Shown here one piece after another: positions 6,656 to 56,830 of a stretch of 64,000 nucleotides of DNA; the stretch's first letter is position 1; each line of letters begins with the position of its first letter. Origin of the DNA: Gemmatimonadales bacterium (GTDB taxonomy: Bacteria > Gemmatimonadota > Gemmatimonadetes > Gemmatimonadales > GWC2-71-9); the NCBI GenBank assembly GCA_035601235.1, contig DATNOR010000186.1:279-64278 (forward strand). Reading direction: 5' to 3'. A program made the translations under genes and the position numbers. A model generated the notes under the pieces. It did not search any database. It was not told the origin of the DNA and saw nothing but the letters and a program-made list of their open reading frames with translations.

Positions 6656-6700
6656 AGAGGAATCCGGGGACTGCCGGGGGACTTGATGAAGGCGGGCCGG

Positions 6701-6716
6701 TGTGATTAGCATCACT
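6701..6716. promoter_or_regulatory. CRP-type palindrome TGTGA-ttagca-TCACt upstream of the ABC transporter operon
   Basis: 9 of 10 match to TGTGA-N6-TCACA, read directly. The centre is 36 nt upstream of ATG 6745. It overlaps a possible TTGATG(6683)-N18-TAGCAT(6707) promoter. Confidence 0.45.
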
Positions 6717-6744
6717 CCGCCCATACACACATTCGCTGGTCGGT

Positions 6745-7707
6745 ATGCCTCTCCTCTCAGTCGAAGGCGTTTCCAAGCGGTTCGACGGCGTGACGGCCGT
6801 CGACCAGGTCTCGTTCGCCGTGGACCGCGGTCAGGTGGTGGGATTCCTTGGCCCGAACGGGGCCGGGAAATCCACGACCATGCGGATGATCACCCAGTAC
6901 TACGAGCCGGACACGGGTGGCATCAAGCTCGACGGCGTACCGCTCGCCGACGTGGGGCGCCAGGCGAAGCGCCGCATCGGCTACCTCGCTGAGAACAATC
7001 CATTGTATGGCGACATGCTGGTGTGCGATTACCTGGGCTTCATCGCCGACCTGCGGGAGCTCGCCGGTGTCGGGCGCCGCCAAGCGCTCGACGAGGCGGT
7101 CACCGGCACGGGCATCGAGACGGTGTACTACCGGCCCATCGGCGAGTTGTCGAAGGGGTACCGCCAGCGGGTGGGCCTCGCGCAAGCGATCCTGCACCGC
7201 CCCGATCTGCTGGTCCTGGACGAGCCCACCGAAGGGCTCGACCCCAACCAGCGCCTGGAGATCCGCAGGCTGATCGGCGCGCTCGGCAAGGACCGCACCG
7301 TGATCCTGTCGACGCACGTGCTCCCGGAGGTGCAGCACACCTGCTCGCGCCTGCTCATCATCAGCCGCGGTAAGATCGTGGCCGACGGACCCGTGGAGCG
7401 GCTCATCCAGCAGGCGGAAGGGGCGGTCGAGATCGCCGTCGAGGCCGCCGGCACGGGCGTCGCGGAAGCGCTGGGCCAGCTCCCCGGGGTGCGCCGGGTG
7501 AGTCCGGCAGGCCCGGCCACGAATGGCCGAGTGGCGGTGACGCTCACCGCCGATCGCTCCACCGACCTGCGGCCCGAGATCTTCGGACTCGCCAAGGCCC
7601 GCGGCTGGACGCTGTACGAGCTGCATCAGGCGGCCGGCCGCCTCGAGGACCTGTTCCACCAGCTCACGAGTCAGCCACCTGACGAGTCAGGCGGAGCGGT
7701 GACGTGA
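6745..7707 (+). CDS. ABC transporter ATP-binding protein (GldA-like, ABC-2 type)
   Basis: Walker A GPNGAGKST, signature LSKGYRQR, Walker B LLVLDEPTEGLD. Confidence 0.9.
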   Translation: MPLLSVEGVSKRFDGVTAVDQVSFAVDRGQVVGFLGPNGAGKSTTMRMITQYYEPDTGGIKLDGVPLADVGRQAKRRIGYLAENNPLYGDMLVCDYLGFIADLRELAGVGRRQALDEAVTGTGIETVYYRPIGELSKGYRQRVGLAQAILHRPDLLVLDEPTEGLDPNQRLEIRRLIGALGKDRTVILSTHVLPEVQHTCSRLLIISRGKIVADGPVERLIQQAEGAVEIAVEAAGTGVAEALGQLPGVRRVSPAGPATNGRVAVTLTADRSTDLRPEIFGLAKARGWTLYELHQAAGRLEDLFHQLTSQPPDESGGAVT

Positions 7708-17052: not shown

Positions 17053-17120
17053 TTCGCGCTCAACACCGCGCCCCGTCGCAACTCCTTATCGAAAGGATGA
17101 TTGAGCGGGGCGTCGCGTAT

Positions 17121-17136
17121 CGTGATGGTCGTCACA
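17121..17136. promoter_or_regulatory. palindrome cGTGA-tggtcg-TCACa (UAS/CRP-type box)
   Basis: 9 of 10 match to TGTGA-N6-TCACA. About 100 nt upstream of the predicted sigma-54 start and 180 nt upstream of rpsF. Confidence 0.45.
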
Positions 17137-17181
17137 CCGTGTCGCCGCGGCCTCAAAAACCCCGCATTGCGCGACGGCATA

Positions 17182-17197
17182 CGTGAGCGACATCACG
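17182..17197. promoter_or_regulatory. palindrome cGTGA-gcgaca-TCACg (UAS/CRP-type box)
   Basis: Same GTGA-N6-TCAC core. Its centre is 61 bp from the 17121 box. Confidence 0.4.
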
Positions 17198-17308
17198 CGC
17201 GCGACGCGCCCTTCCACACCCGGCGCCGCGGTTCTATCTTTCCGCCTGTTGCGATCCCTACTCGGCGCGGCACCTGCGTCGGGTCGCCTATGACCAAAGG
17301 GAGGTGGC

Positions 17309-17677
17309 ATGGCTCGTCGCTACGAGACCGTCTACATCTTCGATCCCGCACTGGAAGAGCCCGCGATCAGCGAAAAGCTGGAGCGGTTTCACGCCCTCCT
17401 CACCAAAGACGCTAAGGGCACCATTACCAACGTCGCGCAGTGGGGCAAGCGTTCCCTCGCGTTCCCCATCAAGAAGAAAGACTCCGGCTACTATGTGGTC
17501 GCACAGTACGAGACCGCGGGGGCGCTGCTCCCCGAGTACGAGCGGGCCGTGAAGCTCGACGAGGGCGTGCTGCGGTTCCTCGTGGTCGTGTCCGAAGGCC
17601 TGCCGGCCAAGCCCGCGGCCGCTCCCGCGGTCATCGCGGCCGACGTCGTGGACGAGATCGAGGAGGACGACGCATGA
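17309..17677 (+). CDS. rpsF: 30S ribosomal protein S6
   Basis: [13 protein letters not shown]... is a typical S6 N-terminus. Strong SD AGGGAGGTGG upstream. Acidic C-terminal tail. Confidence 0.95.
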
Positions 17678-17895
17678 GACGGCCCGCCAAGACGTGTCCC
17701 GTGTGCGAGTCCGGGGTGCGGGTGCTCGACTACAAGGACGACCGCACGCTCGGCCGCTTCCTGACCGAGCGCGGCAAGATTCTCCCCAGCCGGCTGTCGG
17801 GCATGTGCGCGCGGCACCAGCGCCAGCTCGCCACCGCGATCAAGCGCGCGCGCCAACTGGCGCTGCTGCCCTACATCAAGGGATACGTCGGCTGA
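17674..17895 (+). CDS. rpsR: 30S ribosomal protein S18
   Basis: ATGA overlap with rpsF. [25 protein letters not shown] and [18 protein letters not shown]. Confidence 0.95.
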
Positions 17896-17897
17896 CG

Positions 17898-18428
17898 GTG
17901 GGGCGCTGGCTCGGCCTCGTGGCGCTGTCGTTCGCCGCGCTGCGGCTGGCGGCGCGACCGGGATCGCGGGCCCAGTGGCTCGTGCTGGCCGGCGCCGCCG
18001 GAGCCGGCGTGGCGCTGCTGCTCGGGCCCGCGGCCGGATTGCTGGGCGCCCTGGACCGGGCCTGGATCGTGCTGGTGTCGGTAGCGTTCGCCGCCGGCGT
18101 CGCCGCACGCCCGGCCGGCGCGCGCTTCTGGCCGCTCGCGCTGCGGGCGTGTCTCTACACGGCGGCCGGTGTGGCGATCCTCGGGCCGCTCACCGTGGGA
18201 CCGTCGGTGTGGCAGGAAGCCCACTGGGAGGCGACGCGCGACGCGAGCGGCGCCATGCGGCGCGTGATCGAGGTCGCCCCGGGCCTGTACCCGGCGTTCG
18301 AGCCCACGGTGCGGCTGCTCGCGGCCGGCTGGCCCGTGTGGCTCGTGCTCGAGACGCTCGTCGCACTCGCGCTCGCCTGGCGGGCCACGCGGGCGTTGGC
18401 GCGCACGCCGCTCGCCGCCCCGGCGTGA
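17898..18428 (+). CDS. hypothetical polytopic membrane protein between rpsR and rplI
   Basis: In-frame GTG 17898, 2 nt after the rpsR stop. Ala/Leu-rich with several hydrophobic spans. G/C-rich third codon positions. Confidence 0.5.
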   Translation: MGRWLGLVALSFAALRLAARPGSRAQWLVLAGAAGAGVALLLGPAAGLLGALDRAWIVLVSVAFAAGVAARPAGARFWPLALRACLYTAAGVAILGPLTVGPSVWQEAHWEATRDASGAMRRVIEVAPGLYPAFEPTVRLLAAGWPVWLVLETLVALALAWRATRALARTPLAAPA

Positions 18429-28990: not shown

Positions 28991-29770
28991 GTGGAGCTCG
29001 TCACCGTCGGGACCGGCACCGTCGCGCCGTCCGGAAGCCGGACCTCGGCGTGCCACTGGGTCGACCGCGGCAACTTGAAGATCCTGCTCGACTGCGGCGC
29101 GGGCGCCCTGCACCGCCTGGCGCAATTCGGCCTGCCGTGGCACCAGATCACGCACGTCGTGCTGTCGCATTTCCACCCCGACCACTGGGGCGAGCTCCCG
29201 ATGTTGGTGTACGCGCTCAAGTACACCACCGAGCCGCCACGCCAGGAACCCTTCGTGATCCTGGGGCCACCGGGCGTGGTGCGGCTCCTCAAGAAGCTCG
29301 CCGAGGGCTATGGCGCGTGGCTGCTCGACCCGGGGTTCCCCATCGGCATTCTCGACGTCCAGGCGGGCGAGCCGTTCCCGCTCGACAAGGACGTGAGCCT
29401 CGAGACGTTCCCCGTGCCGCACACCCAGGAGAGCGTCGCCCTGTCCCTCACCGCGCCGGAAGGGAGGCTCGTGTATACCGGTGACACGGGTCCCTCGACC
29501 AAGCTGGCGCGCTGGGCCGCCGGGGCCGACCTGCTGCTCGCCGAGTGCTCGCTCCCCGCCCAGCTGGCGATGGAGATTCACTTGACGCCCGAGCAGGCGG
29601 GCGACCTGGGCCGTGAGGCCGGCGCCCGGCGGCTCGTCTTGACGCACTTCTATCCGCCGGTAGAGAATTCGGACCCGGCGCGCACCGCCGCCACGCACTT
29701 CGGCGGACCGGTGACCGCCGCGCGCGACGGCGACCGGTTCACCATCGGAGCGGGAGGGGGGGGTGCGTAG
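28991..29770 (+). CDS. MBL-fold metallo-hydrolase (RNase Z/ElaC-like)
   Basis: [11 protein letters not shown] (HxHxDH) motif. GTG start directly after the smc stop. Confidence 0.75.
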
Positions 29771-37339: not shown

Positions 37340-38011
37340 GTGTCGGTAACGGCCATCCTCCAGAAGGTGCCGCTGTTCAGCCAGTTGGCCACCACGGAGC
37401 TCGACCGGGTGGCCGAGATCACCCGCGAGCGCAGTTACCCCCGCAACTCCGTGATCCTGTTCGAAGACGACCCAGGGGACGCCCTGTACGTCGTGGCCAC
37501 CGGTCAGGTGAAGGTGGTGCTGATCGGCGAAGACGGGCGCGAGGTCATTCTGTCGGTCTTGGGGGAGGGCGACTTCTTCGGCGAGATGTCGCTCATCGAC
37601 GAGGAGCCCCGCTCGGCGCACGTGATCGCGATGGAGGACTCCAACCTCCTGGTGATCCGGCGCGAGGACTTTCAGGCCATCCTGCAGCAGTCGCCGGGCA
37701 TCGCGATGGGGCTGTTGCGCGAGCTGTCGCGCCGCCTGCGGCGCGTGGACGAGAAGGTCGGATCGCTGGTGCTGCTCGACGTGAACGGGCGCGTGGCGCA
37801 GCTGCTGCTCGATCTCGCCGACGAGGCTCGCTCCGACCGCATCACGCGCCGACTCACCCACCACACCATCGCGCAGATGATCGGGTCCTCCCGCGAGACG
37901 GTGAGCCGCACCATGCGCGAGCTGGTGGACAAGGGCTTCATCGAAATCAGCCGTCGCGAGATCCTGATTCGCGACCGCGCCGCGCTGGAAGCCTCAGCCG
38001 GACGGTCGTGA
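37340..38011 (+). CDS. Crp/Fnr-family transcriptional regulator with a cNMP-binding domain
   Basis: GTG 37340 follows AAGGGGA. GEGDFFGEMSLID...RSAHVIA (cNMP pocket). HTH IAQMIGSSRETVSRTMRELV keeps the R-E-x-x-x-R residues of E. coli CRP. Confidence 0.88.
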   Translation: MSVTAILQKVPLFSQLATTELDRVAEITRERSYPRNSVILFEDDPGDALYVVATGQVKVVLIGEDGREVILSVLGEGDFFGEMSLIDEEPRSAHVIAMEDSNLLVIRREDFQAILQQSPGIAMGLLRELSRRLRRVDEKVGSLVLLDVNGRVAQLLLDLADEARSDRITRRLTHHTIAQMIGSSRETVSRTMRELVDKGFIEISRREILIRDRAALEASAGRS

Positions 38012-38045
38012 GGTGCATCACCTCGTCGTGAGGTGCATCACCTCC
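38006..38045. promoter_or_regulatory. two tandem 20-bp repeats, each carrying cGTGA-ggtgca-TCACc
   Basis: TCGTGAGGTGCATCACCTC occurs twice (38006-38024, 38026-38044), and the first copy overlaps the crp-family stop codon. The box centres lie 41.5 and 61.5 nt upstream of the start implied by a TAACTT -10 at 38064-38069. Confidence 0.5.
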
Positions 38046-38097
38046 TAGCTCTCGAATTTTCCATAACTTAGCGACAGGTGCGGCGGTGCCGGGACGC

Positions 38098-38985
38098 ATG
38101 GCCTACACGGTGACCTTCTGGGGAACGCGAGGGTCGATCCCGACCCCTGGGGCCCACACCGCTCGCTACGGCGGCAACACGCCCTGCGTCGCGGTGGAGG
38201 GCACGGGGGGCGGGAGAGGCGACGGCCACGGCCAGCTGGTAATCCTCGACGCCGGCACGGGGATCCGACCGCTGGGGCGCGAGCTGGTGGAGCACCAGAA
38301 CGGCGCGGTGCAGGCGGAGATCCTGCTGTCGCACGCGCACTGGGACCACATCCAGGGTCTCCCGCACTTCAAGCCGTTTTTCGCCCCGGGGAACGCGGTA
38401 CGCATCTGGGGCTCGCGCCAGGGCACGACCTCGCTCGAGGCGATCCTGCGCCAGCAGATGGACCCGGCAGTGTTTCCGGTACCGCTCGATGCGCTGTCGG
38501 CGAAGCTCACGGTCCAGCAGGTCGAGCCGGGGGAGTTCACGGTCGGCTCGTTCCGTGTCCAGGCCATACGGCTGCGCCATCCGGGCACGACGCTCGGCTA
38601 CCGCCTGACCCCGGCCGCAGGGGGCCCGAGCATGGCCTACATCACGGACAACGAGCTGGGCGCGGGGGGCCGCTACAGCACGCCCGCGTCGTGGCGCAAG
38701 GAGTTCGTGGCCTTTCTCGATGGGGTACACCTGTTGATTCACGACGCCATGTACACCCCCGAGGAGCTGGAAGAGCATCGCGGCTGGGGCCATTCGACGT
38801 TCGAAGAAGCGGTCGCCCTGGCCGGCGAAGCGGGGGTGCAGCGCTTGGCCCTGTTCCACCACGAGCCGGAGCACGGCGACGAGGCCATCGATGCGCTGGT
38901 CGCCGCGGCCCGCCGCCAGGCCCGGGTGAAGGGGCTGCCGGCCGAGGTGGTGGCGGCTCAGGAAGGGATGACGTTGACCCTCTGA
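38098..38985 (+). CDS. MBL-fold metallo-hydrolase
   Basis: MAYTVTFWGTRGSIPTPG, LLSHAHWDHIQGLPHF (HxHxDH), HDAMYT, LALFHHEPEH. Confidence 0.8.
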   Translation: MAYTVTFWGTRGSIPTPGAHTARYGGNTPCVAVEGTGGGRGDGHGQLVILDAGTGIRPLGRELVEHQNGAVQAEILLSHAHWDHIQGLPHFKPFFAPGNAVRIWGSRQGTTSLEAILRQQMDPAVFPVPLDALSAKLTVQQVEPGEFTVGSFRVQAIRLRHPGTTLGYRLTPAAGGPSMAYITDNELGAGGRYSTPASWRKEFVAFLDGVHLLIHDAMYTPEELEEHRGWGHSTFEEAVALAGEAGVQRLALFHHEPEHGDEAIDALVAAARRQARVKGLPAEVVAAQEGMTLTL

Positions 38986-39011: not shown

Positions 39012-39716
39012 ATGCGTTCGCTAGGCATCGTCGTGTCGCTCGTGCTGTTGGCGCCCGTGGGAGCGGGGCTCTCCGCCCAGGGACGCGGTCAGGACACGCG
39101 GCCGGGCATCGCCGTCCTGCCGTTCGACAACAGCGGCTCCTACGGCCAGGACAAGGAGAACTTCGAGGCGCTCGAGAAGGGGATCGCCGGCATGATGATT
39201 TCCGAGCTGGCCGCGAACCCTTCGGCCCGGGTGGTGGAGCGCGAGCAGATCGAGAAGCTCATCGCGGAGCAAAACCTGGGCGCCTCGGGCAAGGTGACCC
39301 CGGAGACCGCCGCCAAGGTAGGGAAGCTGGTGGGCGCGCGGTATGTGATCACGGGCGCGTTCATCGATTTCTACGGCGACTTCCGCCTCGACGCGCGGAT
39401 GATCAACGTCGAGACGAGCGAGATCGTCAAGGTCGAATCCGACCGCATGCAGCGGGACCACCTGTTCGACCTGATTCGCAACGTGTCGGGGCGCCTGATG
39501 AAGGACGCCAACCTGCCGCCGCTCCCGAAGCAAGCCTCCGACCAGCGGATGGGCCGCCAGGTGCCGACCGAAGCGCTGACTTTCTACTCCAAAGCGCTGC
39601 TGTATCAGGACCGCGGGCAACGCGACAAGGCCGTCGAGATGTACCAGAAGGCGCTGGCCGTGTTCCCGGAGTACAGCGAAGCGCAGCAGGGGCTGCAGCG
39701 CGTCAAGACCTCGTGA
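39012..39716 (+). CDS. CsgG/LpoB-like periplasmic lipoprotein-fold protein with a C-terminal TPR-like segment
   Basis: Signal peptide. GIAVLPFDNSG...VVEREQIEKLIAEQNLGASGKV...AAKVGKLVGARYVITGAF follows the CsgG-family pattern. Confidence 0.55.
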   Translation: MRSLGIVVSLVLLAPVGAGLSAQGRGQDTRPGIAVLPFDNSGSYGQDKENFEALEKGIAGMMISELAANPSARVVEREQIEKLIAEQNLGASGKVTPETAAKVGKLVGARYVITGAFIDFYGDFRLDARMINVETSEIVKVESDRMQRDHLFDLIRNVSGRLMKDANLPPLPKQASDQRMGRQVPTEALTFYSKALLYQDRGQRDKAVEMYQKALAVFPEYSEAQQGLQRVKTS

Positions 39717-39749: not shown

Positions 39750-41684
39750 ATGAGGTACTTGCTGCTGCACACCTCCGCGTGGGATCCGACCAGTGTCGGC
39801 CCCGCGCTCGAGCGCGCGCAGATCGAAACGCGCCCGGCGCGTCTGCCGCGGGACCTCGCGGTGGACGAGCGGCCGACCGTCTTCATGCTCGACTCCGAAA
39901 GCCGGTCCACGTTTCCACTCGATGTGTTGCGCGCCTTCGTCGACGCGGGGGGCGCGATCGTGGCCCTGGGCCGCAACGGCGAGGTGGACGTCCCGCCGGA
40001 GATGCCGGCCGAGCTGCTCTCGGGGTTCGTGCGCCAGCCGGTCGGCACCCGGCAGCTGCTGGTGGCGGTGCGGGCGGGGTATCGCGAGGCCGCCGCCCGC
40101 GTGGAGACCGCCCGGGCCCGGGCCGAGGCGGCGAGCCGCAGCCGCGAGATCGGCGAGCTCACCCGCATCGGCGTCGCGCTCGGCACCGAGCGCGACGTGA
40201 AGTCCCTGCTCGACCTCATCCTCACGCAGGCACGCCGCATCACGTCCTCCGACGCGGGCAGCCTCTACCTCGTGGAAACGGGCGATCAGGGTCAGAAGCG
40301 CCTGCGCTTCCGGCTGGCCCAAACCTATTCCAAGCCGGAAGCGCCGTTCATCGAGTTCACGATACCCGTCGACCGCTCGAGCCTCGCAGGCTACGCCGCC
40401 GTGACGGGTGAGCCGCTCGTGATCGACGACGCGTACTTCCTGCCGCCCGACGTGGAGTACAGCATCAACCGCTCGTTCGACGAGCGGTACGGCTACCGCA
40501 CCAAGTCCATGCTGGTCATCCCCATGAAGGATCATAAGGAAGACGTGATCGGGGTGCTGCAGCTGATCAACCGCAAGCGCAACCCCGAAGCGGTGCTCGC
40601 GACGCCCGCGGACGTCGAGGCACAGGTCGTGCCGTACTCGAAGCGCACGGTGGAGCTGGTCACCGCGCTCGCCGGCCAGGCGGCGGTCGCCATCGAAAAC
40701 AGCCGCCTGTACGAGGAGATCGAGCGCCTGTTCGAGGGGTTCGTGAAGGCGGCCGTGCACGCGATCGAGCAGCGCGATCCGACCACCTTCGGCCACTCGG
40801 GGCGGGTCGCCAACATGACCGTGGGCCTCGCCGTCGTGGTGGACCGCGCCGGCGACGGCGCCTACCAGGGTGTGCGTTTCACGCGCGAGCAGATCCGCGA
40901 GCTCCGCTACGCCGGACTGCTGCACGACTTCGGGAAGGTGGGCGTACGCGAGCAGGTGCTCGTCAAAGCGAAGAAGCTGTATCCGCTGCAGCTGGAGCTC
41001 ATTCGGCAGCGCCACGACTTCGTGCGGCGCACGGCGGAGCGGGAGTTCTGGCGCCGACGCGCCGAGTTTCTCGAGGCGCACGGACGCCAGGGGTACGAAG
41101 AGTTTCTCACGCGGCTCGCGGCCGAGCACGCCGGCGAGATCGAAACGCTGGACCGCTTTCTGAACGCCGTGCTGCGGGCGAACGAGCCGACGGTCCTGCC
41201 GGCGGAGCGGTTCGAGGAGCTGCTCTCCGTGGCCCGCTGCACCTATGAGGATCTGTCCGGCGAGCTGCGCCCCTACCTGAGCGACGAGGAGATGCGCTAC
41301 CTCACGATTCCCAAAGGGTCGCTCGACGAGAGCGAGCGGCTGGAGATCGAGAGCCACGTCACCAACACCTACCGCTTCCTGCAGCAAATCCCCTGGACCC
41401 GCGAGCTGCAGCACGTGCCCCTGATCGCGTACGGGCACCACGAAAAGCTCGACGGCGGAGGCTATCCCCGCCGTGTGACGGGTGAGGCGATCCCGATTCA
41501 GACCCGCATGATGACGATCAGCGACATCTACGACGCGCTCACCGCCGCCGACCGCCCCTACAAGTCCGCGGTGGCGCCCGCGCGGGCGCTCGACATCATG
41601 GTCGAGGAGGTGCGCGCCGGCCAGCTCGACCAGGAACTGTTCCGGCTGTTCGTGGATGCCAAGGTGTTCGAGGCGAACACCTAG
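39750..41684 (+). CDS. HD-GYP phosphodiesterase with a receiver-like N-terminus and a GAF domain
   Basis: GLLHDFGKVGV (HD) and HHEKLDGGGYPRR (GYP). GAF-like block SDAGSLYLVE...SMLVIPM...VIGVLQLINRK. Confidence 0.85.
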   Translation: MRYLLLHTSAWDPTSVGPALERAQIETRPARLPRDLAVDERPTVFMLDSESRSTFPLDVLRAFVDAGGAIVALGRNGEVDVPPEMPAELLSGFVRQPVGTRQLLVAVRAGYREAAARVETARARAEAASRSREIGELTRIGVALGTERDVKSLLDLILTQARRITSSDAGSLYLVETGDQGQKRLRFRLAQTYSKPEAPFIEFTIPVDRSSLAGYAAVTGEPLVIDDAYFLPPDVEYSINRSFDERYGYRTKSMLVIPMKDHKEDVIGVLQLINRKRNPEAVLATPADVEAQVVPYSKRTVELVTALAGQAAVAIENSRLYEEIERLFEGFVKAAVHAIEQRDPTTFGHSGRVANMTVGLAVVVDRAGDGAYQGVRFTREQIRELRYAGLLHDFGKVGVREQVLVKAKKLYPLQLELIRQRHDFVRRTAEREFWRRRAEFLEAHGRQGYEEFLTRLAAEHAGEIETLDRFLNAVLRANEPTVLPAERFEELLSVARCTYEDLSGELRPYLSDEEMRYLTIPKGSLDESERLEIESHVTNTYRFLQQIPWTRELQHVPLIAYGHHEKLDGGGYPRRVTGEAIPIQTRMMTISDIYDALTAADRPYKSAVAPARALDIMVEEVRAGQLDQELFRLFVDAKVFEANT

Positions 41685-53289: not shown

Positions 53290-54147
53290 CTAGAACAGGA
53301 AGCTTTCCAGCGCCCTGGCTCTCGAGACGTGGCGGAGGCGCGCCAGCGCCTTCTCTTTGATCTGTCGCACCCGCTCGCGCGTGATGCCGAGCAGCGAGCC
53401 GATCTCCTCGAGCGTCATGGGCTCCTGCCCCTCGAGGCCGAAATACAGCCTGAGGATCTTGGCCTCGCGCTCCTTGAGCGTCGCCAGCACTTCTTCGATG
53501 GACTCGGTGAGGGCGTGCTCGAAGATCTGATCGTCGGGTCCGGGGTTCGTGGTGTCGGGGAGGTAGTCGAGCAGCTTGTTGTCCTCACCGGGGGTGAGGG
53601 GCGCGTCGAGGGAGAGATGTGCCTGCGAGATGGACAGCGTCTTGGCGACTTCTTCCTCGGAGATATCCATGCCTTCGGCGATCTCTTCCACGGTCGGCTC
53701 GCGGCCGAGCTCTTGTAGGAGCGAGGCCGAGCGCTTGCCGATGCGATGCAGCGTGCCCGCCCGGTTGAGCGGCACGCGCACGATGCGTGACTGCTCGGCG
53801 AGCGCCTGGAGGATCGCCTGGCGGATCCACCACACGGCGTAGGAGATGAATTTGATCCCCTTGGTCTCGTCGAACTTGTGGGCCGCCCGGATCAGCCCGA
53901 GGTTGCCCTCGTTGATCAGATCCGAGAGGGAGACGCCCTGGTTCTGGTATTTCTTGGCGACGGAGACGACGAACCGGAGGTTGGAGCGGACCAGCTTGTC
54001 CAACGCCTCCTCGTCGCCGCGTTTGATGCGCTGGGCCAGCGTGACCTCTTCCTCGCGCGTGATCAGGGGATACTGGCTGATCTCGCGCAAGTACTGATCG
54101 AGCGATCCCTCGTCGAACGAGGCGCGCTTCGCGGTGTTGAGTTGCAT
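53290..54147 (-). CDS. RNA polymerase sigma-70 family factor, short RpoD-like (285 aa, no region 1.1)
   Basis: NLRFVVSVAKKY, DLINEGNLGLIRAAHKFD, YAVWWIRQAI, TLEEIGSLLGITRERVRQIK. Confidence 0.9.
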   Translation of the reverse strand: MQLNTAKRASFDEGSLDQYLREISQYPLITREEEVTLAQRIKRGDEEALDKLVRSNLRFVVSVAKKYQNQGVSLSDLINEGNLGLIRAAHKFDETKGIKFISYAVWWIRQAILQALAEQSRIVRVPLNRAGTLHRIGKRSASLLQELGREPTVEEIAEGMDISEEEVAKTLSISQAHLSLDAPLTPGEDNKLLDYLPDTTNPGPDDQIFEHALTESIEEVLATLKEREAKILRLYFGLEGQEPMTLEEIGSLLGITRERVRQIKEKALARLRHVSRARALESFLF

Positions 54148-54237
54148 GGCCTAGTCCCTCCAGGCGCGAACAACGCCGCACGATGCCCGCCCCGGCCGAC
54201 GGCGCGGCCCCGGGGCCGGGACTCCCCGACGACGGCT

Positions 54238-55008
54238 CTAGCGGATGATCGAGCCGAGCCGGTGCCAGCGAATATCGGTCAACCAGGGCAGCGCATCATG
54301 CGCCTCCCGGTCGTAGCTGAAATACACGACGAGCGGTCGTCCCTTGATCGCCGCGGCGTCGACGAAGCCCCAGTAGCGGGAATCCGCCGAGTTGTCGCGG
54401 TTGTCCCCCAGCACGAAATACCTTCCGGCGGGGACGACCAGCGGACCCCACGTGTCGCGGGTCGGGTGATAATTGCGGGCCACGCTGCCACCACCGAGCA
54501 GATAGTCCCGCTGCCAGTTGAACTCCGGATCGTACACGTCGTGCCCCGGGTCCACCCGCTGCACGTAGCGCTCGGCGAGGGGGTCGCCGTTCACACGCAC
54601 TTCCCCGCCGCGCATCTCCACGGTGTCGCCCGGGAGGCCGATCACACGCTTGACGTAGTTCAGCTCGGGATTCTTGGGGTAGGCGAACACGACCACGTCG
54701 CCGCGCCGCGGGGACTCGAAGCCCGGCAGTCGTGCCTTGGTGCCGGGAATCTGCGCACCGTACACGGCTTTGTTCACGAACAGGAAGTCCCCCGCCAGCA
54801 GAGTTCGCTCCATACTGCCCGACGGGATCTGGAACGCTTCGACGAGGAAGGTCTTGATGATGACGAACAGGATGACGGCCATGCCGACCGAGCGCAGCCA
54901 GTTGTCGAACCAACGACCGAGGCGCGACTGGCGCTTCTCGACGGGGGCGACAGGGAGCGGCGCGGTGCGCGCGCCCGTACCTGCCCGCGATCCCCCCAAG
55001 TCAAGCAT
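54238..55008 (-). CDS. lepB: signal peptidase I
   Basis: IPSGSMERTL (catalytic Ser), GDVVVF, YVKRVIGLPGD, VLGDNRDNSADSRYWGFV. ATG 55008 is chosen so that it does not overlap the upstream small ORF. Confidence 0.88.
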   Translation of the reverse strand: MLDLGGSRAGTGARTAPLPVAPVEKRQSRLGRWFDNWLRSVGMAVILFVIIKTFLVEAFQIPSGSMERTLLAGDFLFVNKAVYGAQIPGTKARLPGFESPRRGDVVVFAYPKNPELNYVKRVIGLPGDTVEMRGGEVRVNGDPLAERYVQRVDPGHDVYDPEFNWQRDYLLGGGSVARNYHPTRDTWGPLVVPAGRYFVLGDNRDNSADSRYWGFVDAAAIKGRPLVVYFSYDREAHDALPWLTDIRWHRLGSIIR

Positions 55009-55018
55009 GCCATTTACT

Positions 55019-55273
55019 CTACCCACGCCGCCCGCTGGACGCAACCGTAATCGCCCATCCGCGGGCCGCTCCCCAGCGTCGCACGCGATCGCGGAACGCG
55101 TCCGGCGGCTCGCGATGCATTACCCGCGCCGCCAGGCAGGCCGTCTCGCCCTCGCGCTCGACGCGGACCCACGTCACCAACACGTCGGTCAGGGCGCCGA
55201 GCGCCGTCCGCTCGAGCGGCGAGCCGCCGAGCGACAGAATGATCAGCAGCGATTCGTGATCCACCGGACGCAC
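55019..55273 (-). CDS. hypothetical 84-aa protein
   Basis: G/C-rich third codon positions throughout. Stop is 10 nt before the lepB ATG. No family recognised. Confidence 0.4.
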   Translation of the reverse strand: MRPVDHESLLIILSLGGSPLERTALGALTDVLVTWVRVEREGETACLAARVMHREPPDAFRDRVRRWGAARGWAITVASSGRRG

Positions 55274-55287
55274 GGTAACGCGTCCGG

Positions 55288-55303
55288 CGTGAGGGGCGTC
55301 ACC
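55288..55303. promoter_or_regulatory. palindrome cGTGA-ggggcg-TCACc
   Basis: GTGA-N6-TCAC core read directly. It sits in the 66-nt gap between the aldehyde dehydrogenase stop and the small ORF / lepB unit (minus strand). Confidence 0.35.
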
Positions 55304-55339: not shown

Positions 55340-56830
55340 CTAGGCCTCGGTGTCGATTTGGGCGCGCTGCAGCTTCCCGGAGAAGTCGACGTAGACGACT
55401 TTGGTCTCCGAATAGAAATCGTACACTTCCCACCCGCCCTCGCGGTGCCCGTTGCCTGTCTGCTTGACGCCGCCAAACGGCAGGTGCGCCTCGGCGCCGA
55501 TGGTCGGGGCGTTGACGTAGGTGATGCCCGTATCGAGCTCACCCATCGCCCGGAACGCGGCGTTCACGTCTCGCGTGTAGAGCGAGCTGGAGAGTCCGTA
55601 GGGCACATCGTTGTTGACGCGAATCGCCTCGTCGAGCGAGGCCACCTTGATCACCGCGAGCACCGGGCCGAAGATCTCCTGCTGCTCGACCCGCATGCCG
55701 GGCGCGACGCCCGACACCACGGTCGGCTGGTAGAACCAGCCGCGCTCGAGCCCCGCGCCCGTGGCCCGCTCGCCGCCGATCAGCACGCGCGCGCCGTCCT
55801 GGCGAGCGACGCCGACGTAGTACTCGACCTTCTTCAGGGCGTCCTCGTTGATGAGGGGTCCGACGTCGGTCCGCTCGTCCAGGCCGGGCCCGAGCCGCAG
55901 CCGGCCGGCGCGATCGCACAGCATCTGCAGCAGCCGGTCGTGCACCCGCTCGTGCACGAGCAGGCGGCTGGTCGCGGTGCAGCGTTGGCCGGTGGTACCG
56001 AACGCCCCCCACAGCACGCCTTCCAGCGCCAGGTCGAGATCCGCATCGTCCATCACGATCATGGCGTTTTTTCCGCCCATTTCGAGCGACAGGCGCTTGT
56101 GCATCCGGCCGCACGTGGCGCCGATGATCGCGCCGGTTTCGGTCGAGCCGGTGAACGAGATCACCGGCACGTCCGGGTGCTCGACCATCGCCCGCCCCAC
56201 GACCGACCCCTCCCCGTGTACCAGCTGCACCACCTCGGGGGGCAGGCCCGCTTCGAGAAGCAGCTCGACCAACAGGTGCGCCGTGTGGGGCACGTCCTCG
56301 GCCGGTTTGAAGATCACCGCGTTCCCGCACAACAGGGCCGGAAACATCTTCCACGTCGGAATGGCGAGCGGGAAATTGAACGGCGTGATGAGGCCGGCGA
56401 CGCCGATCGGCCGGCGGAAGCTCATCGCCCACTTGTTGCGCAGCTCCGAGGGCACGGTGCGGCCGAACAGCCGCCTCCCTTCCGTGTGAGCGTAGTGCGC
56501 GGTGTCGATCCCCTCCTGCACGTCCCCACGGGTCTCGGCCAGCACCTTGCCCATCTCGCGCGTCATGGCGCGCGCGATCGTTTCCTTGCGCTCGACCAGC
56601 AGGTCCCCCACGCGGTGCAGCACCTCGCCCCGGACCGGCGCGGGTGTCTTGGACCAGAGAGCGAACCCGCGCTGGGCCGACGCGACGGCGCGGGCCACGT
56701 CGTCCGGCCCGGAGCGCGGGAAGCAGCCGATGATGTCGTCCCGGTCGGCCGGGTTGCGGTTCTCGAAGTAGGCGCCGGTCGCGGGGGCGACCCATTGGCC
56801 ACCGATGAAGTTCTTGAAGGTCTCGGACAT
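55340..56830 (-). CDS. NAD(P)-dependent aldehyde dehydrogenase
   Basis: FNFPLAIP, VISFTGSTETG, LEMGGKNA, GQRCTA, PFGGVKQTGNG. Confidence 0.93.
   Translation of the reverse strand: MSETFKNFIGGQWVAPATGAYFENRNPADRDDIIGCFPRSGPDDVARAVASAQRGFALWSKTPAPVRGEVLHRVGDLLVERKETIARAMTREMGKVLAETRGDVQEGIDTAHYAHTEGRRLFGRTVPSELRNKWAMSFRRPIGVAGLITPFNFPLAIPTWKMFPALLCGNAVIFKPAEDVPHTAHLLVELLLEAGLPPEVVQLVHGEGSVVGRAMVEHPDVPVISFTGSTETGAIIGATCGRMHKRLSLEMGGKNAMIVMDDADLDLALEGVLWGAFGTTGQRCTATSRLLVHERVHDRLLQMLCDRAGRLRLGPGLDERTDVGPLINEDALKKVEYYVGVARQDGARVLIGGERATGAGLERGWFYQPTVVSGVAPGMRVEQQEIFGPVLAVIKVASLDEAIRVNNDVPYGLSSSLYTRDVNAAFRAMGELDTGITYVNAPTIGAEAHLPFGGVKQTGNGHREGGWEVYDFYSETKVVYVDFSGKLQRAQIDTEA

Follow-up and report, generated by a model that had tools for sequence, protein, structure and literature searches.

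What do two identical palindromes do when they stand in tandem across the stop codon of a gene for a Crp-family regulator, and who reads them? The question arises in a 64-kb stretch of Gemmatimonadales DNA (contig DATNOR010000186.1; hereafter the window, 64,000 nucleotides, 70% G+C), the nearest relatives of which are Gemmatimonadales metagenome-assembled genomes. In the window, the regulator gene (crp) is followed by genes for a metallo-β-lactamase (MBL) fold protein, a CsgG-like protein and a GAF–HD-GYP protein, and two copies of the pattern GTGA-N6-TCAC lie at the junction (Table 1). We conclude that the palindromes are probably operators of the regulator encoded upstream, located in a sigma-70-type promoter of the MBL/CsgG-like/GAF–HD-GYP operon and placed for class II activation.

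Two palindromes and their background frequency

The 19-mer TCGTGAGGTGCATCACCTC is present at positions 38006-38024 and 38026-38044, and both repeat copies contain cGTGA-GGTGCA-TCACc. An earlier note on this DNA had described the 19-mer as occurring twice in tandem, 20 bp apart, each time with a GTGA-N6-TCAC core; the letters match that description and Tandem Repeats Finder agrees with it. The TGA stop of the open reading frame (ORF) ending at 38011 sits within the first GTGA. Box 1 is the copy in the ancestral position over the stop codon, as in most orthologous loci, and the spacing of box 2 to the hexamer TAACTT further downstream is that of the single box in four relatives with a short form of the promoter, described below (L001, L015, L019 and L169).

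We searched the box pattern exhaustively over the window and compared the count with 100 shuffles. Seven sites were found (6702, 17122, 17183, 38008, 38028, 55289 and 56151) against 0.68 expected (standard deviation 0.85), and none of the 100 shuffles reached seven. On a crude gene map, six of the seven fall outside genes, and the one at 56151 is inside an aldehyde dehydrogenase gene. The boxes at 38008 and 38028 stem from one duplication and hence are not independent events. The earlier note had proposed such a search of the whole genome with shuffled controls, and the window-wide count agrees with its main expectations: fewer than one chance occurrence per 64 kb, a single match in coding DNA and six non-coding cores. 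Its figure of about 2 kb for the non-coding DNA holding those six did not stand, as this amounts to up to ~8.3 kb, and its site coordinates are one lower than ours since they include the preceding base, the sites themselves being the same.

Table 1. Positions of the predicted regulatory elements and associated genes in the window
Feature	Position	Strand	Details
GTGA-N6-TCAC match over the -10 region TAGCAT of a GldA/GldG-like ABC operon promoter	6702..6715		Doubtful regulon member
Predicted regulon box GTGATGGTCGTCAC in the JAB(-)/rpsF(+) divergent region	17122..17135		22 nt from minus-strand CATCCT (plus-strand AGGATG 17094-17099)
Second predicted regulon box GTGAGCGACATCAC	17183..17196		61 bp from the first; variable distance to the rpsF promoter-like TATCTT (17235-17240)
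Crp-family regulator gene	37340..38011	+	223 aa, GTG start, TGA stop within box 1
Exact 20-bp tandem duplication with both boxes	38005..38044		Tandem Repeats Finder: period 20, 2.0 copies, 100% matches
Box 1, GTGAGGTGCATCAC	38008..38021		Centre 38014.5 (-61.5 if start = 38076); overlaps the crp stop codon
Box 2, GTGAGGTGCATCAC	38028..38041		Centre 38034.5 (-41.5 if start = 38076); 22 nt upstream of TAACTT
-10-like hexamer TAACTT, candidate MBL operon promoter	38064..38069	+	-35 position reads CCTCCT, not TTGACA-like
MBL-fold (Lactamase_B_2) protein, predicted phosphodiesterase, HAHWDH motif	38098..38985	+	Pfam 5.1e-21
CsgG-like / TPR lipoprotein gene	39012..39716	+	Pfam CsgG 1e-17, TPR_1; 26 nt after the MBL gene
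GAF + HD-GYP (HD_5) gene	39750..41684	+	Pfam HD_5 2e-28, GAF 1.7e-15; 33 nt after the CsgG-like gene
Candidate box	55289..55302		24 nt upstream of a conserved 81-aa ORF (55019-55264, minus strand) preceding lepB and a sigma-70-family gene

Conservation of the box at the crp stop codon

For comparison, we collected 80 orthologous crp loci (477 kb in total), each species being represented by one genome; their Crp proteins are 65-98% identical to that of the window. These contained 77 exact matches to the pattern, 74 of them at or just past the crp stop codon, and at least one exact box was present in 72 of the 77 crp loci that could be assessed. Among the relatives, the four-base arms are invariant and the six-base spacer and the flanks vary freely, without self-complementarity, giving the consensus YGTGA-N6-TCACR. 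Fixed arms around a free spacer are the signature of a protein-binding site and argue against an RNA hairpin. At loci where crp ends in TAA or TAG, the box is intact and shifted 2-13 nt downstream; the stop codon thus does not account for the box, which is an independent element. The relatives share the order rpmE(-) | crp, MBL, CsgG-like: the MBL gene comes directly after crp in 71 of the 80 loci, and the CsgG-like gene, also called in near-identical contigs, is present in 66 of 81. The comparative data thus strongly support the view that the box is a Crp-type operator, deeply conserved across the order and predicted to occupy a class II-like position. This was the core of the earlier proposal of CRP-type operators at class II distance; its further detail, a class I tandem, did not hold across the relatives.

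The regulator

The predicted product of crp combines an N-terminal cyclic-nucleotide-binding domain (cNMP_binding, PF00027, 5.2e-30) with a C-terminal Crp-type helix-turn-helix (HTH_Crp_2, PF13545, 3.1e-20), as is characteristic of the CRP/FNR superfamily. It is 37% identical to Escherichia coli CRP and retains residues G71, E72, R82 and S83 of the cyclic-nucleotide pocket as well as R180, E181 and R185 of the recognition helix. The stretch SRETVSR, aligned with SRETVGR of E. coli CRP, had been singled out in the earlier note as the conserved recognition helix, and we found it invariant in all 81 orthologues. The G-E / R-S-A cassette for cyclic-nucleotide binding is also kept across the orthologues, in the forms FGEM(S/A) and PRSA(H/T). 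Read via the established E. coli work, the regulator keeps some of the acidic residues equivalent to activating region 3 (AR3) and lacks the inhibitory K52. Among solved structures, the closest are Thermus thermophilus CRP (4ev0, 1.6e-38), Corynebacterium glutamicum GlxR and Mycobacterium tuberculosis Crp, and the score against the NCBIfam equivalog of E. coli CRP (NF008732) is 134.7 bits versus a cut-off of 266 bits. Judged by these comparisons, the regulator is a member of the CRP family and not an orthologue of E. coli CRP. From the chemistry of the helix and the order-wide physical fusion of box and gene, we infer that the regulator encoded upstream is the binder of the boxes. An autoregulatory site upstream of crp was considered and rejected, the rpmE–crp spacers containing no exact site in any of the 80 loci.

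Promoter geometry

The hexamer TAACTT starts 22 nt past box 2, and the ATG of the MBL gene is at 38098. If transcription starts at 38076, the centres of the two boxes are at -41.5 and -61.5, as had been calculated before. We compared this arrangement among the orthologous loci. A hexamer of the form nAnnnT is found at offset 36-37 from the promoter-proximal GTGA in 64 of the 72 box-bearing loci, reading TAACTT in 27 and GAGGTT in 10, and ends 22-37 nt before the MBL start codon; the crp–MBL spacer is 64-109 nt long in all loci but one (L068, 32 nt). The loci follow two layouts. In the long form (60 loci), the full box is followed exactly 23 bp downstream by a second GTGA that overlaps a -35-like CTTGTT, and the nAnnnT hexamer comes 37 nt after this second GTGA. 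In the short form (10 loci and the window), the full box itself stands 22-23 nt ahead of the hexamer. The box, a TAACTT-type hexamer and the spacing of 22-23 nt are kept in 60-70 species-level genomes and, with the hexamer taken as the -10 element, every proximal site would be centred at -41.5 or -42.5, the class II position.

A distance of 22 bp between the site and the -10 region is a hallmark of class II promoters (PMC10187061). In the candidate promoter of the window, the -35 element is poor or absent (CCTCCT), as expected of a class II promoter; the long-form relatives carry CTTGTT at the -35 position, together with a half-site only. From the spacing to the predicted -10, we infer a class II placement of the proximal box at -41.5. 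Two other conserved promoters of the lineage, CTTGAA-N18-TAGCAT and TTGCGY-N17-TARMGT, follow the form TTGnnn-N17-19-TAnnnT, and as they are independent of the crp locus, they make TAACTT credible as a -10 element. Further, in the crp–MBL spacers of five distant relatives (L069, L072, L074, L078 and L079) the TAACTT-type promoter is replaced by a textbook sigma-54 element of the -24/-12 type, TGGCAG-N5-CTTGC, and in four of the five the palindrome has degenerated to GTGA-N6-GCAC. Such decay is expected if the box is functionally tied to the sigma-70-type promoter. A sigma-54 promoter was also considered for the window but rejected, the element being absent from its crp–MBL spacer and found only in those five relatives.

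The 5' leader of the MBL gene (38076-38097 in the window, and the orthologous loci) is without a canonical Shine-Dalgarno sequence, and in many relatives a conserved CGGCGTGCC is found ~10-15 nt before the start codon.

Origin of the tandem

The exact duplication is young. The closest relatives by Crp identity differ in layout, L001 (98%) having one box and L002 (97.8%) the long form. Among ten independent assemblies with an identical Crp, the exact 20-bp duplication is found in nine, L169 being the one with a single box; presence in nine independent assemblies rules against an assembly artefact. With the duplication absent from both L169 and L001, the sequences indicate that the tandem is a recent, strain-level and polymorphic duplication and not an ancestral feature. 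The ancestral layout, as read from the relatives, is a full box at about -65.5 with a GTGA half-site at about -42.5. A likely history is that the full box reached the class II position through a deletion of ~23 bp and that a 20-bp slippage duplication then restored a second site, now at -61.5 as opposed to the ancestral -65.5. The earlier idea of a tandem with a class I site at -61.5 could consequently apply to the window, where the tandem is indeed present, and does not describe a conserved state: the value of -61.5 arises by arithmetic in the window strain only, the distal box of the relatives being at ~-65.5.

Does the second copy matter? Possibly not: box 1 could be a neutral by-product of replication slippage, leaving one functional box and a -61.5 site without a role. 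We regard this as doubtful though by no means far-fetched. It overlaps with the activation reading and concerns the second copy only; it would account for the exactness of the duplication, its polymorphism among strains and its absence from the nearest relatives, and it sits well with the single-box promoters seen in several lineages. On the other hand, nine of the ten sampled assemblies carry the duplication, and two-site layouts are the rule in the order, with 60 loci having the +23 half-site and two (L006 and L065) having two full boxes. This prevalence suggests selection for a second site and hints that the extra copy matters.

The downstream operon

Pfam assigns Lactamase_B_2 to the first downstream product, CsgG and TPR to the second, and GAF with HD_5 to the third, confirming the earlier description of the unit as MBL hydrolase, CsgG-like protein and HD-GYP phosphodiesterase. 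The GAF–HD-GYP protein has a weak NCBIfam match to a cyclic di-GMP (c-di-GMP) phosphodiesterase response regulator. The MBL protein has the metal-binding motif HxHxDH as HAHWDH, which is invariant, and Lactamase_B_2 is its only confident Pfam match. Its NCBIfam matches to RNase Z (72 bits) and to a cyclic-nucleotide-degrading phosphodiesterase (NF041851, 44 bits vs. a cut-off of 400) are both far below the cut-offs, and a match to Apyc1 (PF23023) was seen only among precomputed results, where it is labeled "weak". In a Foldseek search, the AlphaFold (AF2) model of the protein (pLDDT 77) matched ELAC/RNase Z, the PhnP family, YhfI, yeast PDE1 (TMq 0.71, rank 17) and Apyc1 (TMq 0.51, rank 38), the first three as well as or better than the last two. 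The modeled fold suggests that the protein belongs to the phosphodiesterase branch of its fold. Assignment to one family was attempted and given up: RNase Z/ELAC, PhnP, YhfI, PDE1 and Apyc1 are indistinguishable by sequence models and fold search. A second Lactamase_B_2 protein is encoded at 28991-29770 (+), directly after an SMC gene, and has a weak match to Apyc1 (5.6e-05).

Proposed mechanism and the evidence against it

We propose that a Crp dimer loaded with cyclic nucleotide would bind the promoter-proximal box, which is 22 nt ahead of TAACTT and, at -41.5 and without a -35 element, would be in the class II position, and that the bound dimer would recruit RNA polymerase. The 20-bp duplication would add an identical box two helical turns upstream, at -61.5, and so re-create the two-site layout of the relatives. 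If the MBL protein degrades the ligand of the regulator, the cyclic nucleotide would be subject to a negative feedback loop, and the HD-GYP protein may couple the cyclic-nucleotide signal to the turnover of c-di-GMP. Judging by its gene content, the operon may serve the turnover of second messengers and be controlled by Crp, with negative feedback; the step through the MBL protein, by which cyclic nucleotide monophosphate (cNMP) levels would feed back, follows from its predicted activity. We also considered a wider scenario, which we offer tentatively and hold to be somewhat improbable as a whole: an order-wide Crp operator, fused to the stop codon, that would drive a second-messenger-degrading operon, with an MBL phosphodiesterase acting on the Crp ligand and a GAF-gated HD-GYP acting on c-di-GMP, and serve as a hard-wired cNMP homeostat with c-di-GMP cross-talk, its two-site layout so strongly selected that a second site lost by deletion was rebuilt by duplication, with one-box and two-box strains coexisting in soil.

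Several observations weigh against activation by this regulator in the manner proposed. In most relatives the full box is near -65.5, a non-canonical phase for class I, and the site at -42.5 is a half-site. A promoter scan of the E. coli type called no promoter at TAACTT. Two dimers bound 20 bp apart might interfere with each other and not cooperate, and at the M. tuberculosis whiB1 promoter the proximal site represses. In the ligand pocket, the regulator has V and D in place of T127 and S128 of the E. coli protein (V/A and D across the orthologues), which makes its effector uncertain, and no cyclase gene was found in the 64-kb window. The MBL protein scores below the curated cut-offs of every phosphodiesterase family tested, and a Pfam scan at E <= 0.05 gave neither the class II phosphodiesterase family (PF02112) nor Apyc1 (PF23023). 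Finally, paralogous Crp/Fnr regulators were checked within the window only.

Alternatives to activation by the upstream regulator

The boxes could be Crp operators and still act negatively or biphasically, such that a dimer on the box covering the core promoter, or dimers on both boxes, would repress the MBL operon or block read-through from crp. At whiB1, two sites separated by 21 bp are known to act in opposite ways; crp and the MBL gene are co-directional and 86 nt apart with no detectable terminator, so that read-through is plausible; and the ancestral combination of a strong distal box (~-65.5) with a weak proximal one would suit a concentration-dependent switch. The details of the promoter speak for activation instead: a spacing of 22 nt to a -10-like hexamer, combined in the short form with the lack of a -35 element, typifies class II activation, this geometry is repeated at the promoter of a JAB-domain gene elsewhere in the window (see below), and the regulator partly keeps AR3-like acidic residues and lacks the inhibitory K52. 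On balance we consider negative or biphasic action improbable.

It is less probable still that another transcription factor, either a Crp/Fnr paralogue or an unrelated dimer, binds the boxes and that their adjacency to crp is coincidental. Genomes usually have several paralogues of the Crp/Fnr families with related half-sites, and the window covers 64 kb of this one. However, the box is fused to the end of crp order-wide, even when the stop codon changes, the invariant helix agrees with the residues by which E. coli CRP recognizes GTGA (PMC10187061), and no second Crp-family gene was found in the 64-kb window.

A role at the RNA level, as a terminator or a stabilizing hairpin of the crp mRNA, is very improbable and was rejected: the element is at the 3' end of a gene, and in the window strain and L001 the flanks extend the palindrome to a 6-bp stem (GAGGTG-CAT-CACCTC), but the predicted fold is no better than that of shuffled sequences (z = -0.26), a terminator scan calls none, the relatives keep GTGA/TCAC only (a 4-bp stem) with non-complementary spacer and flanks, and the same motif is found in 5' regulatory regions.

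Comparison with known systems

Class II activation by the upstream regulator has its closest model in the class II/III promoters of E. coli CRP (TGTGA-N6-TCACA at -41.5, either alone or together with an upstream site), with which the window shares the inverted GTGA/TCAC repeat around a 6-bp spacer. The residues R180, E181 and R185, the 22 nt from the site to the predicted -10 and, in the short form, the lack of a -35 element are as in the E. coli system (PMC10187061). Unlike the E. coli sites, the consensus YGTGA-N6-TCACR has no fixed outer T/A, and the system as a whole differs in the 37% identity of the regulators, the score below the equivalog cut-off, the replacement of T127/S128 and the non-catabolic nature of the targets. 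The closest solved relative of the regulator, T. thermophilus CRP (TTHA1437, PDB 4ev0, 1.6e-38), has an identical SRETVSR helix.

Tandem sites are known from M. tuberculosis Crp (Rv3676), which binds whiB1 at -58.5 and -37.5, 21 bp apart; the distal site activates and the proximal one represses at high cAMP. By sequence, our regulator and M. tuberculosis Crp belong to the same CRP subgroup (PDB 3d0s/3i54, ~6e-36), and in both systems two CRP sites are about two helical turns apart (21 bp at whiB1, 20 bp here and 23 bp in the relatives). Site positions in the two systems are offset by 3-4 bp; here, the spacing of the proximal site is that of class II, and the second full site arose by a recent duplication.

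Feedback of the kind proposed also has precedents. Vfr of Pseudomonas aeruginosa activates cpdA, forming a feedback loop, and CpdA of the C. glutamicum GlxR system is a class II phosphodiesterase; the CpdA of P. aeruginosa is not known to be an MBL enzyme. As in those systems, a CRP-type regulator is placed to control a phosphodiesterase-like gene, predicted as such here. Unlike in the Vfr and GlxR loops, the target gene is fused to the 3' end of the regulator gene and travels with a GAF–HD-GYP gene.

Literature searches gave nothing relevant on cyclic-nucleotide regulation in Gemmatimonadota. For this abundant but barely cultured soil phylum, the analysis provides a well-supported operator motif, YGTGA-N6-TCACR, and a promoter model, TTGnnn-N17-19-TAnnnT, with class II spacing, as well as at least two predicted order-wide regulon members. 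The control element is of an ordinary and well-known kind and leaves the CRP paradigm unchanged, while the natural polymorphism between one and two boxes could be used to study how the number of sites affects the CRP dose-response.

Other boxes in the window

The earlier note had listed the remaining intergenic sites as well. Of these, the pair at 17122/17183 is deeply conserved, its first box being phased to the promoter of the JAB-domain gene, 55289 is partly conserved, and 6702 is not.

The pair is in the divergent region between rpsF and the JAB-domain gene, for which we used 80 metagenome loci recovered with ribosomal protein S6 (L081-L160). Two boxes with variable N6 are present in ~60 of the 80, and the pair is as well conserved as the crp-locus box. 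The 17122 box is at a fixed distance from a conserved AAGGATGAT, the reverse complement of which, CATCCT, is at offset 36, and the offset at the MBL promoter is the same. The phasing of this box to CATCCT suggests the divergent JAB-domain gene as its target; 62 of 81 loci have this gene in synteny. The spacing between the two boxes is 40-42, 60-65 or 74 bp, near whole helical turns. On the other side, the rpsF promoter-like element reads CCTTCC-N18-TATCTT, and the distance from the 17183 box to TATCTT is 29, 38, 43 or >150 nt; as this phasing is not fixed, rpsF was rejected as a direct class I/II target. A small ORF running from GGATGAT through the 17122 box to the TGA of the 17183 box was likewise rejected, the spacing of the boxes not being a fixed multiple of three.

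The same loci hold three further conserved features. Between the boxes (17136-17182) there is a direct-repeat-like element, GTCAA-N6-7-CATCAA, possibly a site for another factor. The 5' leader of rpsF (17241-17308) is highly conserved, with a CCCTACTCGGCGCCGCACCTGCGCCGGGTCGCC hairpin followed by the Shine-Dalgarno sequence GGGAGGTG, and it could be an autoregulatory leader of the S6/S18 type; at the gathering threshold, Rfam gave no RNA family anywhere in the window, this leader included. A 291-aa ORF (17553-18428, +), with rpsF on one side and the L9 gene on the other, lacks a Pfam match and is conserved in 73 of 81 S6 loci; in the stop-to-stop map it overlaps rpsF at the end of the latter, so that its true start may differ.

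The match at 6702 was rejected as a conserved regulon member. Its TCAC half survives in the closest relatives alone (L171 and L172) and nothing of it beyond relatives of 92% identity; what is kept at the ABC operon promoter (6660-6745; L171-L177) is the -35 and -10 pair CTTGAA-N18-TAGCAT. The match is due to chance, or else it is a repressor site specific to the lineage. The ABC gene has its ATG at 6745, the operon carries the Joint Genome Institute (JGI) name gliding motility-associated transport system, and its promoter serves as a sigma-70-type reference for the lineage.

The box at 55289 has one mismatch in two of five relatives (L179 and L180), is weaker in two (L178 and L182) and absent in one (L181). 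It is not directly upstream of lepB: a conserved 81-aa ORF lies 24 nt downstream of it instead. This ORF (VDHESLLIILSLGGSPLE...), between the aldehyde dehydrogenase gene and lepB, has no Pfam match; it is a gene call in L178 and L180, is conserved in L182 and is absent from L179 and L181. The true start of lepB is at 55008 (minus strand), giving a protein of 257 aa, and a conserved sigma-70-family gene follows at 53290-54150. A conserved promoter-like TTGCGY-N17-TA(A/G)(A/C)GT (55008-55050 on the minus strand; around 960-1003 in L178-L182) ends ~7 nt before the ATG of lepB, which suggests that its mRNA is leaderless or nearly so.

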